Part shown: in pieces, positions 46,128-61,433 of the stretch
Position numbering within the stretch: the stretch's first letter is position 1
How the letters are laid out: each line of letters starts with the position of its first letter
Program-made: the position numbers and the translations under genes
Source: an uncultured Clostridia bacterium
GTDB lineage: Bacteria > Bacillota > Clostridia > Oscillospirales > QAMX01
Reading direction: 5' to 3'
Assembly (NCBI GenBank): GCA_944380935.1
Contig: CALWJF010000039.1
Location: forward strand, 12,492-76,491
Length of the DNA stretch: 64,000 bases
Notes under the pieces: generated by a model
The model's input: only the letters and a program-made list of their open reading frames with translations
Told to the model about the DNA's origin: nothing
Database searches by the model: none

Positions 46128-46898
46128 CTAAATCTGCTTTTTAATCCGGGCAAGCGCCGCCTTCTCCAGCCGGCTGATTTGTGCTTGGCTAATCCCTACC
46201 TCCTCCGCCACTTCTGTTTGCGTGCGTCCTTCAAAAAAACGCAAGGATAAAATATGCTGTTCCCGTTCGGGTAATCGGCTGATCGCATTTCGAAGTGCTA
46301 TACGTTCCAACCAACTTTCATCTGTATTTTTTGTATCCTTTACTTGATCCATTACACACATCTCATCCCCTGCGTCCGAATACAGTGGTTCATACAACGA
46401 TACCGGCTCAACAATAGCATCCAGCGCAAACACCAATTCCTCGCGTGGCGTACCCATAATCGTTGCAAGCTCGTCAAGCGTCGGCTCCCGTTGATGTGCA
46501 TTCACAAATTGTTCTTTGGCCTGCATTGCACGATATGCCGTATCCCGCATAGAGCGGCTGACACGGATGGAGCTGTTGTCCCGAAGATAGCGCCGGATCT
46601 CGCCAATAATCATCGGTACGGCATAGGTTGAAAAGCGTACGTTTTGCGTAAGGTCAAAATTGTCTATGGATTTAATCAAACCAATACAGCCAACCTGAAA
46701 AAGATCATCCACCAATTCTCCCCGGTTCGTAAAACGCTGAATAACGCTCAATACCAACCGCAGATTGCCTTGCACCAGCTTCTCCCGCGCTTCTCGATCA
46801 CCCTGCTTTGTCTTGTTCAGGAGCTCGACGATTTCATCATTAGGCAACACTTTTAGTTGAGAGGTGTTGACACCGCAGATTTCCACCTTGTTCAACAT
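46128..46898 (-). CDS. sigG: sporulation sigma factor SigG
   Basis: Near-collinear with my recollection of B. subtilis SigG: NKVEICGV.TS.L.VL, GNLRLVLSVIQRF.NRGE.VDDLFQVGCIGL.KSIDNFDL, FSTYAVPMIIGEIRRYLRDN. ATG at 46898. Confidence 0.9.
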   Translation of the reverse strand: MLNKVEICGVNTSQLKVLPNDEIVELLNKTKQGDREAREKLVQGNLRLVLSVIQRFTNRGELVDDLFQVGCIGLIKSIDNFDLTQNVRFSTYAVPMIIGEIRRYLRDNSSIRVSRSMRDTAYRAMQAKEQFVNAHQREPTLDELATIMGTPREELVFALDAIVEPVSLYEPLYSDAGDEMCVMDQVKDTKNTDESWLERIALRNAISRLPEREQHILSLRFFEGRTQTEVAEEVGISQAQISRLEKAALARIKKQI

Positions 46899-47196
46899 TC
46901 CGAAATCCCCCGTCAAAGGTATTTGTTACCTTGAAAGTATTGCCCGGAGGCGTTTCTTTCATACCTTTTTGCGCAAACCATTGACGAAGCACTCTTCGTA
47001 AACCATTTTTCAGTTTGTTGATTAATGCAAAATTATTCCTTTACATGATCATTTCCTGCTGAATTGTTGCTTACGATCCCAAAAACAATGCCGCTGTAAT
47101 TTTTAATTTAAATTGCATTAAAAAAGAAACTTTTTATGAACGCTCTGCGTCTAATAAGTACAAAGCTTAGGAAAATATTGTTTAAGGAGGAAGATT

Positions 47197-59542: not shown

Positions 59543-59571
59543 TTGACAGTCTCTCGCATATTTTATATAAT
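59543..59571 (+). promoter_or_regulatory. consensus sigma-A promoter driving the S-box leader
   Basis: TTGACA (59543-59548), 17-nt spacer, TATAAT (59566-59571). Confidence 0.65.
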
Positions 59572-59576
59572 AGACG

Positions 59577-59726
59577 TTACCATAAAGAGTGCGTGAGAGA
59601 CAAGCTCATTGACCGCACAGCAACCTGATTCTTTTGATTCGGAATTAAGGTGCTAAAGCTTGACCGATGGCCAATACGTTCATAGGGTTCCATCGGTAAC
59701 GATGGAACCTTTTTGCATCTTTATGG
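59577..59726 (+). promoter_or_regulatory. SAM-I (S-box) riboswitch leader
   Basis: AAGAG junction; P2 GTGCG/CGCAC enclosing a GAGAGA...TGA k-turn; CAGCAACC; P3 CCTGATTC/GAATTAAGG; GGTGCTAAA. The P2-loop CAAGCT is complementary to AGCTTG in J3/4 (pseudoknot), which covaries with CTGG/CCAG of B. subtilis yitJ as I recall it. Confidence 0.8.
59686..59714 (+). terminator. S-box-associated intrinsic terminator hairpin
   Basis: GGTTCCATCG-GTAA-CGATGGAACC followed by TTTTT. The upstream ACCGATGG (59663-59670) can pair with CCATCGGT (59690-59697) as an antiterminator. Confidence 0.7.
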
Positions 59727-59843
59727 CTTCTTACGAATTGTCTGCTATTGTTCCTTATAGCATCCCATGAATCCTGAGTTTTTAACATAAGCGTCTGTCT
59801 TCCGGCATATGAATCTAGTAAGATTTAATCCCGGAGGGATGAG

Positions 59844-60119
59844 ATGAGAAACAGTATCGACGCACGTATTTATGATCTTGCCAATTACATAGTTGAGAAT
59901 GAGACCACTGTCCGTGCAGCAGCAAAGCGTTATGGCGTCTCCAAATCCACCGTTCACAAGGACGTTACGCAACGTCTATATGAAATTGACCGAAGCCTGT
60001 ATCTACGTGTGCAAGAAGTGTTGGCGCGCAATAAAGCGGAACGGCATTTGCGTGGCGGAATGGCTACCAAACGCAAATATGCGCTGCTTGCCGAGGGACA
60101 TAAAAAAAACGGCGCCTGA
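59844..60119 (+). CDS. spoIIID: sporulation transcriptional regulator SpoIIID
   Basis: 91 aa. I.....YIVE...TVR..AK.FGVSKSTVHKD.T.RL and HLRGG.ATK.KY match my recollection of B. subtilis SpoIIID. GGAGGG RBS. Confidence 0.9.
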   Translation: MRNSIDARIYDLANYIVENETTVRAAAKRYGVSKSTVHKDVTQRLYEIDRSLYLRVQEVLARNKAERHLRGGMATKRKYALLAEGHKKNGA

Positions 60120-60188
60120 GCCATTGACATACAGGTGCAGGATTTTTATCTTCTGCAAATGATATTTATTGATATAGGAGATCTACCA

Positions 60189-61370
60189 ATGAAAAAACGT
60201 ATGTACACTTCCGAATCCGTCACCGAAGGGCATCCGGATAAACTGTGTGATCAAATTTCCGATGCGATCCTCGATGCAATCCTTGCTTCTGATCCTGTTG
60301 CTCGCGTGGCCTGTGAAACGACAGCGACAACCGGACTAATCCATGTAATGGGCGAAATATCCACACAGGCTTATGTTGATATTCCAAGCGTTGTCCGCGA
60401 TACCATTCGCAAAATCGGGTACGACAACCCGGCTTACGGCTTTGACGGCAATACTTGCGCTGTTATCACCTCCATCGATGAACAATCCCCGGATATTGCG
60501 ATGGGCGTAAATGCTTCTGCAGAATCCAGAATTTTATCAGATGATCTTGCCGATCGCATTGGTGCAGGAGATCAAGGAATGATGTTTGGCTACGCCTGCC
60601 GTGAAAGCGAGGAACTGATCCCCGCTACGCTATATTATGCACATGCGCTTTCGCGCGGGCTTGCACGGCTGCGCAAAGAAGGCGTTTTACCCTATTTGCG
60701 GCCGGATGGGAAAAGCCAGGTCTCCATCGAATACGGCGAATCCGGACAGCCGCTGCGCTGTACTGCGGTTGTTGTTTCCACACAACATGATCCTGAAGTG
60801 GATATTGAAACTTTGCGCCGCGATATACGAGAAAAATTGATTCTGCCTACCATTCCGGCTTCTCTTCTGGACAGCGAAACAAAGTTTTTTATAAATCCAA
60901 CCGGCCGTTTTGTGCTGGGCGGACCTGCCGCTGATTCCGGATTGACCGGACGCAAAATTATCGTCGATACCTACGGCGGCTTCTCTCACCATGGCGGCGG
61001 TGCATTTTCCGGAAAAGATCCCACAAAAGTTGACCGCAGCGCATCTTACATGGCGCGTTATGCGGCGAAAAACGTCGTTGCCGCCGGGATTGCACAACGT
61101 TGCGAAATCGGCGTGGCGTATGCCATCGGTGTTGCACGGCCGGTTTCCATCTATGTTGATACTTTCGGCACCGGGATTGCGGATGACGACCGTATTGCAG
61201 CAGCCATAGAAGAAGTTTTTGACTTTCGTCCAGCTGCAATTATTGAAACGCTTGGCCTGCGCCGCCCGATTTATGCCAAAACAGCTGCATATGGCCACTT
61301 CGGCCGCCATGATTTGCCCTGGGAACAGACAGATCGTATCGAGGCACTCAAATCTGCGCTGACTCGCTAA
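60189..61370 (+). CDS. metK: S-adenosylmethionine synthase
   Basis: [31 protein letters not shown] and [16 protein letters not shown] motifs. AGGAG RBS. The track ORF begins at 60135. Confidence 0.95.
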
Positions 61371-61382
61371 CGGTAAAAACGA

Positions 61383-61433
61383 AAAAGCCCACGAACCAAC
61401 CTCCTTTTGGGGAATATGGCGTCGTGGGCTTTT
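61383..61433. terminator. bidirectional terminator
   Basis: AAAAGCCCACGA (61383-61394) pairs with TCGTGGGCTTTT (61422-61433), between convergent genes. Confidence 0.75.

Follow-up and report, generated by a model that had tools for sequence, protein, structure and literature searches.

A SAM-I riboswitch, the sporulation gene spoIIID and the SAM synthetase gene metK follow one another in the window, the 64-kb stretch of DNA analyzed here, and appear to form a composite control region (Table 1). In the reading that we favor with moderate confidence, metK answers to the riboswitch, the intervening spoIIID stays translationally silent on that transcript, and transcription in the mother cell bypasses the riboswitch. 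We infer this course of transcription, termination and translation from sequence elements, conservation and covariation that were observed directly. The organism is known from metagenomes only; a sigG equivalog in the same window (46128–46916, NCBIfam profile match) indicates that the lineage carries sporulation genes. An earlier, sequence-only reading had listed the promoter, the aptamer, a hairpin with five Ts, the ORFs and several motifs, all of which are present at the positions given in Table 1. It had also offered three interpretations: that SAM gates a spoIIID–metK bicistron, that read-through from the leader governs metK while spoIIID, lying in between, has an internal promoter of its own, or that the leader is a terminated stand-alone RNA. 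The second of these fits best.

Table 1. Sequence elements and genes of the S-box–spoIIID–metK locus (window coordinates)
Feature	Position	Strand	Details
Sigma-A-type promoter, TTGACA-17 nt-TATAAT	59543–59571	+	12/12 consensus match; TTGACA 59543–59548, TATAAT 59566–59571
P4-less SAM-I (S-box) aptamer	59577–59674	+	RF00162; P4-less model R1
Predicted antiterminator helix	59663–59697	+	ACCGAUGG 59663–59670 with CCAUCGGU 59690–59697
Predicted intrinsic terminator	59684–59714	+	Stem 59684–59695/59700–59711, loop GUAA, U5 59710–59714
ATCTTTATGG, possible anti-SD relic	59717–59726	+	9/10 complement of CCATAAAGAG 59580–59589
Sporulation-type (sigma-E-like) spoIIID promoter	59785–59814	+	−35 CATA 59786–59789, 16-nt spacer, −10 CATATGAAT 59806–59814
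Predicted hairpin over spoIIID Shine-Dalgarno	59799–59837	+	CUUCCGG 59799–59805 with CCGGAGG 59831–59837
spoIIID (91 aa)	59844–60119	+	PF12116, E 1.4e-34
TTGACA-17-TATCTT promoter-like site	60124–60152	+	Motif match; not conserved
metK, SAM synthetase (393 aa)	60189–61370	+	PF00438, PF02772, PF02773
Stem-loop between A- and U-runs, end of operon	61383–61433	.	−26 kcal/mol fold

The leader RNA is predicted to start at about 59576–59579, which coincides with the 5′ end of aptamer helix P1, and TTGACA...TATAAT promoters occupy the equivalent position in the related loci L001, L081–87 and L192. Positions 59577–59708 match RF00162 with 60.7 bits (cut-off 44.4, E 1.3e-11), the only Rfam match in the whole 64-kb window that reaches its gathering threshold, and RF00162 is the model that Rfam keeps as best within the SAM clan. 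The SAM-I assignment of the sequence-only reading is borne out by this significant match. The loci of nine relatives score 47.3–59.4 bits with the same model, and our own P4-less model, R1, gives the window aptamer 94.9 bits. Helix P1 (59577–59583 with 59667–59673) is weak in the window, with 4 bp, an internal loop and then 3 bp; P2 (59589–59618) contains a K-turn-type internal loop (UGA/AUUGAC), and P3 spans 59619–59655. Across 29 sequences, this three-helix fold has 93.6% of cells paired, compared with 24–38% in slid controls, and nine of its pairs show compensatory changes. A pseudoknot between the P2 loop and J3/4 (CAAG 59601–59604 with CUUG 59660–59663) can form four pairs in 29/29 sequences, its columns being invariant and so without covariation. 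The P2 loop also holds a SpoIIID-box-like AGACAAGC, a motif with a chance expectation of about one per kb per strand.

Helix P4 of RF00162 is missing from this subtype: the relatives align to the model with P4 deleted. SAM-IV and SAM-I/IV riboswitches are marked by a P4 hairpin 3′ of P1 that makes a second pseudoknot and by a P2 lacking a K-turn; a comparison of related leaders finds no conserved hairpin 3′ of P1 besides the terminator. For the window, the Rfam alignment instead draws 59663–59697 as P4 with a 22-nt insertion and closes P1 on the 3′ arm of the terminator. We rejected this alignment and end the aptamer at about 59674, because the relatives, the covariation and the P4-less model disagree with it; the aligned structure would terminate in both states. 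The helix labeled P4 by Rfam in the window is the predicted antiterminator. Some natural SAM-I sequences without P4 can still function, with lower affinity (PMC12714719), so the missing helix does not bar membership of the class. Those aptamers and the one described here are alike in that the core is kept and P4 is gone; the group highlighted in that study is Actinomycetota, whereas the present variant is common among Clostridia of the gut and rumen, with 98 exact-motif matches in metagenomes. Judged by its sequence, the leader aptamer is a genuine SAM-I riboswitch, for which SAM sensing is predicted.

Downstream of the aptamer, the minimum free energy fold is dominated by the 12-bp terminator stem (−19.7 kcal/mol), whose last two pairs use U59710–59711 of the T-run that ends it. 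The hairpin followed by five Ts that had been noted earlier was recovered in this fold, and a simple terminator scan of the sequence did not list the 59684–59714 hairpin. Over 25 sequences, 97.5% of the cells of the terminator helix are paired, and 6 of its 11 pairs have compensatory changes. The antiterminator (−12.5 kcal/mol, 8/8 pairs Watson-Crick) overlaps both the 3′ strand of P1 and the 5′ arm of the terminator, an arrangement that recurs in about 50 independent leaders; as in an S-box attenuator, terminator and competing antiterminator share strands with P1. Since aptamer, antiterminator and terminator all show compensatory changes, the switch appears to be under selection. We propose that the strong sigma-A promoter starts an RNA of which the first ∼98 nt fold as the P4-less aptamer. 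With SAM bound, P1 would keep its AUGG strand, the terminator would form and transcription would stop at about 59714; when SAM is low, the AUGG strand would pair with CCAUCGGU and polymerase would pass through spoIIID into metK. The resulting circuit would be classical S-box feedback on SAM synthetase. S-box leaders of the Grundy and Henkin type, which precede metK and other met/cys genes of Bacillus and Clostridia and act by transcription attenuation, have in common with this one the sigma-A promoter, the SAM-I aptamer with its K-turn and, as predicted here, its pseudoknot, mutually exclusive antiterminator and terminator, the off logic and metK as regulated enzyme. They differ from it in that here P4 is absent and a 276-nt regulatory gene with an internal promoter stands between leader and metK.

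The gene at the end of this proposed transcript encodes all three S-AdoMet synthetase domains (N-terminal, central and C-terminal, E 1e-45 to 1e-68). Its ATG follows the spoIIID stop by 69 nt, and its Shine-Dalgarno (SD) is predicted to be open on the read-through RNA (0.31–0.71). The stem-loop behind metK could be a two-way terminator shared with a convergent NUDIX-like ORF. The TTGACA-17-TATCTT motif that the sequence-only reading had pointed out before metK is present in the window and is specific to it, as no such site was found in or next to the spoIIID–metK gap of the four relatives scanned (L001, L081, L085 and L086; gap −4 to 74 nt); it may be a weak metK promoter confined to this lineage, or a chance occurrence. 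This site, together with the strength of the terminator, could be taken to mean that the leader is a stand-alone terminated RNA, either vestigial or acting in trans as a small RNA, and that spoIIID and metK are expressed from their own promoters only. Some S-box RNAs do act in trans, such as Listeria SreA. For the present locus we regard this as very improbable, since the compensatory changes extend through aptamer, antiterminator and terminator, the metK-proximal site is not conserved, five relatives have a spoIIID–metK gap as short as −4 to 36 nt, and metK would be left without a vegetative promoter. With no other conserved promoter for metK in the clade, a stand-alone RNA, the third of the earlier interpretations, is unlikely to be the sole role of the leader.

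The order S-box, spoIIID, metK recurs among uncultured gut Clostridia: seven lineages have it, in every case in which the contig is long enough to show it, with spoIIID–metK gaps of −4, 27, 28, 29, 36, 69 and 74 nt. Within this group, identity to the window proteins is 76–96% for SpoIIID and 80–92% for MetK. The sequence-only reading had made its proposal depend on this adjacency being conserved in relatives, and it is kept in the seven lineages. Model R1 detected no S-box at E ≤ 1 among 84 other spoIIID loci, a result that applies to the P4-less subtype to which R1 is tuned and leaves a classical S-box possible in the 71 of them without an Rfam scan; candidates turned up in 14 loci with a loose regular expression, and the 13 of these submitted to Rfam showed no SAM match. 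The out-group spoIIID–metK loci L090–L092 likewise have no S-box even at E ≤ 1. Another locus, L193, with an apparent S-box, spoIIID and mbl and no metK, was discarded as evidence as a mosaic: nucleotides 1–132 of its spoIIID are 85.6% identical to L001, whereas nucleotides 133–240 are 61% identical to L001 and 71% to L032, and the break falls inside the most conserved HTH segment. Literature searches found nothing on spoIIID, metK and a riboswitch together, and those on spoIIID and S-box yielded no account of this arrangement. The antisense S-box of Clostridium acetobutylicum (PMC2258182) and SreA of Listeria are also SAM-I elements with a non-sulfur-metabolism sequence directly downstream. 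These work by antisense or trans RNA, whereas here the likely target, metK, lies one gene further on the same transcript.

The spoIIID ORF scores 118.5 bits with PF12116, against a gathering score of 27. In Bacillus subtilis and Clostridioides difficile, sigma-E RNA polymerase transcribes the gene, and its product is a regulator of the mother cell. The window gene resembles those two genes in encoding a small PF12116 HTH protein behind a promoter of the ATA-N16-CATA type ∼30 nt before the ribosome-binding site; unlike them, it lies inside a housekeeping operon under riboswitch control, is followed by metK and not by mbl/mreB, and encodes a protein just below the equivalog cut-off (TIGR02844, 105.6 bits versus 111.5). 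The element CATATGAAT, which the sequence-only reading had proposed as a sigma-E-like −10, forms the −10 of this bipartite motif, with ATA-N16-CATATGAAT at 59787–59814. Motifs of the form ATA-N15–18-CATA lie upstream of 66 of the 87 spoIIID genes compared with 5.2 expected, and in 7/7 in-group lineages the motif aligns and is invariant. Thus, spoIIID keeps the sporulation-type promoter of its family, with a predicted start at about 59820; from motif resemblance we infer that it is sigma-E-like. In our proposal, spoIIID would be a passenger between leader and metK that has retained this promoter.

The low equivalog score is shared by the in-group proteins (94–106 bits, compared with 113–121 for other SpoIIIDs), and could point to a diverged SpoIIID paralogue that now serves as a methionine/SAM regulator co-expressed with metK, and not to the sporulation SpoIIID. 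The linkage to metK also reaches the more distant lineages without S-box (L090–L092), and a second SpoIIID, P0020 (121 bits), shares its NCBI assembly with the SpoIIID protein P0012. We consider such a paralogue distinctly unlikely: the window protein keeps all invariant family residues, the family promoter motif is intact and conserved, and the assembly is apparently a bulk metagenome, so that the co-occurrence of P0012 and P0020 does not place them in one genome.

The silence of spoIIID on the riboswitch-driven RNA is suggested by a predicted hairpin over its SD, the 5′ arm of which falls within the spacer of the internal promoter. Predicted folding in seven lineages gives the SD a probability of being unpaired of 0.00–0.13 on the read-through RNA, and of 0.5–0.6 on the short transcript from the internal promoter. 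In five lineages the duplex of masking arm and SD comes to −14 to −25 kcal/mol, the hairpin has z = −2.2 to −4.4 against mononucleotide shuffles, and the 5′ arm varies by lineage (CUUCCGG, CUUCUCCGGA, CCUUCCCGGG, UUCUCGGGAU) with pairing kept. RNAalifold did not recover the hairpin from the −35-to-ATG region of the seven lineages, as its pairing register shifts among them, nor is there clean column-wise covariation for it; the evidence for the mask therefore comes from per-sequence folding and mononucleotide shuffles. We propose that the promoter spacer, being complementary to the SD, buries this site on the long RNA, so that SpoIIID would not be made from it, and that the masking arm is missing from a transcript begun at the internal promoter, which would be translatable. 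More tentatively, and at somewhat less than even chances, promoter choice may set translatability: spoIIID would be silent in the housekeeping operon during growth and become translatable once sigma-E polymerase starts within the hairpin, with metK then escaping SAM feedback. The internal start lies downstream of the riboswitch, and mother-cell transcription from it would thereby free metK expression of SAM feedback.

The hairpin could also be a regulated gate and not a constitutive mask, which is conceivable because related S-box leaders have an anti-SD hairpin there that is probably ligand-responsive. Most of these leaders carry a homologous anti-SD element 0–9 nt past the U-tract, absent in L001, and ATCTTTATGG, which stands at this position in the window and forms a duplex of −11.4 kcal/mol with CCATAAAGAG, is probably a relic of it. 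A gate of this kind would allow SAM shortage to induce SpoIIID: both proteins would come from the riboswitch-gated bicistron, which would tie a lack of methyl donor to the mother-cell programme or to some function of this regulator in vegetative cells, and the SD hairpin would be a second SAM-responsive gate. In keeping with this, spoIIID is the first gene past the leader in 7/7 lineages, its start codon in L081, L085 and L086 lies ∼60–70 nt after the U-tract, as is usual for a directly regulated gene, and in B. subtilis the genes of the S-box regulon respond to SpoIIID by a possibly indirect route (PMC517825). Moreover, in related P4-less leaders the anti-SD is complementary to the SD and also to the 5′ strand of the aptamer, a hint that unmasking depends on the ligand. 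In the spoIIID clade, however, the anti-SD arm has weak complementarity to the aptamer 5′ strand (−5 to −8 kcal/mol, where shuffled controls give −6.3 and typical leaders as much as −17), so that no unmasking partner is evident, and spoIIID retains an independent sporulation-type promoter. We therefore judge SpoIIID induction by SAM shortage to be unlikely. As for the first of the earlier interpretations, a SAM-gated bicistronic transcript is very probable, and SAM gating of the SpoIIID protein is undercut by the conserved SD-masking hairpin.

Promoter–SD complementarity is enriched at other spoIIID loci as well (21 of 66 with z ≤ −2), and masking of this kind may thus be a general insulation device for the SpoIIID regulator. 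If riboswitch control of metK across a silent spoIIID holds, the locus would be a compact natural case of two regulatory programmes, metabolite feedback on an essential enzyme and a developmental sigma-factor cascade, combined on one DNA stretch without cross-talk. It would further teach that the target of a riboswitch is not always the adjoining gene and that covariance-model alignments can take an antiterminator for an aptamer helix. Should the promoter-embedded SD mask work as predicted, a potent developmental regulator would be transcribed in growing cells yet remain untranslated, and the developing cell would be seen to override riboswitch feedback on SAM synthesis.

The promoter and aptamer core that the sequence-only reading had placed ahead of spoIIID were borne out. 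The sigma-A promoter is a perfect match, an aptamer match begins within ~6 nt of its TATAAT, and RF00162 (SAM-I) is significant at 59577-59708 (60.7 bits, E = 1.3e-11), the only Rfam gathering-threshold match in the 64-kb window. Rfam's alignment of the window has a 22-nt insertion in 'P4' and P1 closed by GAUGGAAC, the terminator 3' arm; we dropped this arrangement, which could not switch: either conformation would put a hairpin ahead of the U-run. When eight related loci are aligned to RF00162, P4 is deleted and the first AUGG directly after GCUUGACCG closes P1. Searching for exact copies of the junction GGTGCTAAAGCTTGNCCGATGG gave 98 metagenome stretches; the 80 that came back as loci contain 67 different leaders, and all 12 leaders sampled from this set match RF00162 (46.9-65.9 bits). 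Across 29 diverse members, P1, P2 with its K-turn, P3 and the P2-loop/J3-4 pseudoknot are paired in 93.6% of cells, with both-side changes at nine pairs, versus 24-38% of cells in slid controls. The P4-less covariance model scores the window at 94.9 bits (59577-59674), and for the outer P1 positions the first AUGG strand is the better partner in 23 leaders and the terminator arm in nine. SAM-I aptamers without P4 are known from nature (PMC12714719), and the window riboswitch is therefore an ordinary further member of this known subtype.

In leaders with a short linker (window 59663-59708; L104, L108, L110 and L140 among related loci), the RF00162 alignment sets the antiterminator as P4 and the terminator 3' arm as the P1 3' strand, with an inflated score (57-66 versus 47-57 bits) and a reported aptamer stretched into the expression platform. 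In the window aptamer the P2 loop (59596-59607, GAGAGACAAGCUC) includes AGACAAGC, a fit to the SpoIIID box of B. subtilis, WWRRACAR-Y; with roughly one such fit per kb to be expected on each strand, it is probably chance.

The hairpin and T5 run noted from the sequence form a terminator (table) that dominates the minimum-free-energy fold and, among 25 leaders, is paired in 97.5% of cells with compensatory pairs at 6 of 11. The P1 3' strand is contained in ACCGAUGG, and CCAUCGGU doubles as the terminator 5' arm. This architecture suggests a classical platform, which would act as an off switch via transcription attenuation.

Features of the S-box-spoIIID-metK locus in window coordinates
Feature	Position and elements	Remarks
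Sigma-70-type (sigma-A) promoter	TTGACA 59543-59548, 17 nt, TATAAT 59566-59571	Perfect match
Antiterminator	ACCGAUGG 59663-59670 with CCAUCGGU 59690-59697	-12.5 kcal/mol
Terminator hairpin + U5	12-bp stem 59684-59695/59700-59711; U5 59710-59714	-19.7 kcal/mol
Bipartite promoter element	CATA 59786-59789, 16 nt, CATATGAAT 59806-59814	ATA-N15-18-CATA motif
SD-masking hairpin	CUUCCGG 59799-59805 (in promoter spacer) with CCGGAGG 59831-59837 (SD)	Predicted pairing
spoIIID	59844-60119	Pfam SpoIIID, E = 1.4e-34
metK	ATG 60189 to 61370	Three SAM-synthetase domains

As had been read, spoIIID is the first ORF past the leader and metK the next; the neighbours are a MATE transporter gene in divergent orientation and, past metK on the opposite strand, a DUF1846 gene and a NUDIX-like ORF. 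Among the best 80 of 355 SpoIIID loci in species-representative genomes, metK lies near spoIIID only in L001 (SpoIIID 96% identical), and metagenome contigs supply six more lineages (L192, L191, L086/87, L081-84, L085; SpoIIID 76-83% and MetK 80-83% identical). The synteny proposed for comparison is thus conserved: promoter, S-box, spoIIID and metK keep one order in all these lineages wherever the contig reaches, usually with the MATE and DUF1846 neighbours, and the spoIIID-metK gap across seven lineages is 74, 69, 36, 29, 28, 27 and -4 nt. That the leader is a stand-alone RNA, which its strong terminator would suit, is very unlikely. More distant loci (L090-L092, MetK 74-77%) retain spoIIID then metK with no SAM riboswitch, even at E <= 1, and a separate TTGACT-17-TATACT promoter precedes their metK, in a gap of 116-228 nt. 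The P4-less model found an S-box at none of 84 other spoIIID loci, and Rfam at none of the 13 checked out of 14 flagged by a loose core regex.

The metK leader in the distant loci (L091 3848-4001, L092 3772-4001, L090 193-310) is ~60-190 nt long and has no Rfam match at E <= 1. An apparent S-box-spoIIID-mbl order without metK on a 1843-nt contig, L193, was set aside as a mosaic: up to nt 132 of spoIIID, S-box and promoter included, it is L001-like (85.6%), and from there on spoIIID and the mbl behind it look like those of L032-type genomes. The break falls within the conserved HTH-coding segment, and the contig arose either by chimeric assembly or by natural recombination. In L088 (4001-5185) a radical-SAM enzyme gene follows 4 nt after spoIIID (P0017, 72% identical), a second case of tight spoIIID linkage to a SAM-related gene. 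Incidental Rfam matches were a purine riboswitch just downstream of spoIIID (L037 4478-4579) and a ZTP riboswitch (L140 2193-2277).

No terminator was found between spoIIID and metK, the sole hairpin in the window gap being weak and without a U-run. The TTGACA-17-TATCTT site proposed before metK (60124-60152) is present in the window but has no counterpart in L001, the closest relative, or in L081, L085 and L086; in these four, no promoter-like site occurs in or beside the short gaps. With neither a conserved gap promoter nor an intergenic terminator, metK in this clade would therefore depend on upstream promoters. During growth it would rely on the S-box promoter, and the leader would then provide the usual feedback control of metK, with spoIIID lying in between.

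The B. subtilis sigma-E consensus is ATA ... CATACA-T, and spoIIID is sigma-E-dependent in Bacillus and C. difficile. The sigma-E-like -10 of the sequence-only reading, CATATGAAT, proved to be one half of a bipartite element whose motif lies between -110 and -12 in 66 of 87 spoIIID genes (5.2 expected from shuffles), and neither half varies in the alignment of the seven lineages. This element is most likely the spoIIID mother-cell promoter, the putative sigma factor being assigned by likeness to the B. subtilis consensus. A sigG equivalog in the window (46128-46916, minus strand; 433 bits versus a cut-off of 372) means that the lineage has sporulation machinery; neither spoIIGA nor sigE is adjacent to it. 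SpoIIID scores 105.6 bits in the window and 94-106 in in-group relatives, all short of the equivalog threshold (111.5), as might be expected of a diverged paralogue that regulates methionine metabolism; that reading is highly unlikely beside the promoter and the presence of every invariant SpoIIID residue in the window protein, as aligned with the B. subtilis sequence. In a comparison with L001, L192 and L193, the stretch from the -10 to the start codon (GGCATATGAATCTAGTAAGATTTAATCCCGGAGGGATGAGATG, 59806-59846) is the same in L001 and L193 as in the window, whereas the coding DNA is only ~83-86% identical, which points to a possible 5' UTR constraint beyond the SD.

The promoter spacer is complementary to the spoIIID SD (duplex -14 to -25 kcal/mol in five lineages). 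Partition-function folding of all seven lineages leaves this SD open with a probability of 0.00-0.13 on read-through RNA, versus 0.5-0.6 on a transcript from ~6 nt past the -10; for the metK SD on the long RNA the value is 0.31-0.71. That SAM limitation truly induces SpoIIID, as the leader's place ahead of the gene would invite, seems unlikely beside the predicted masking of this SD. The 5' arm of the mask varies among lineages (its register is shifted in L191) and the SD side is fixed, which argues for selection on pairing; alignment-based covariation of the mask could not be shown. At other spoIIID loci, promoter-to-SD complementarity averages -10.6 versus -7.7 kcal/mol for shuffles, with z <= -2 in 21 of 66, and RBS masking on read-through transcripts may be a general spoIIID feature. 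Many riboswitch-free spoIIID genes (L002-L080; e.g. L009, L051, L043, L030, L007, L011) have a C/U-rich spacer complementary to their own SD.

Related P4-less leaders carry at the equivalent place an anti-SD element complementary to both the SD and the aptamer 5' strand. In most (L093-L172; e.g. L095, L101, L106, L122, L140) a CUCUUUAUAGG-like element lies 0-9 nt past the U-tract and complements the aptamer strand CCUAUAAAGAG and a downstream SD-containing mimic, CUAUAAGGAGG (median duplex -9.3 versus -6.3 kcal/mol for shuffles; 43 distinct leaders). This suggests that one aptamer could control termination and translation in these leaders. In the spoIIID clade complementarity to the aptamer is weak (-5 to -8 kcal/mol), so that the mask on the long RNA seems to be constitutive. 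The window retains the typical element at 59717-59726 as a 9/10 copy, probably a relic.

In our best model, which we rate as moderately probable, the sigma-A/S-box transcript would deliver SAM-regulated metK in growing cells while its spoIIID stays untranslated, and the internal promoter would yield translatable spoIIID and riboswitch-independent metK in the mother cell. Several genes of the B. subtilis S-box regulon rise in a SpoIIID-dependent manner, possibly indirectly (PMC517825); this would accord with a changed SAM demand at that stage but is no proof for this locus. We found no description of the S-box-spoIIID-metK arrangement in the literature. That an S-box controls metK is textbook knowledge; the unusual part is a gene for a developmental regulator, with an embedded promoter and a predicted SD mask, nested between leader and metK, an arrangement that by sequence comparison is shared across one clade of uncultured gut Clostridia. 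The proposed promoter-dependent translatability is the part worth testing.
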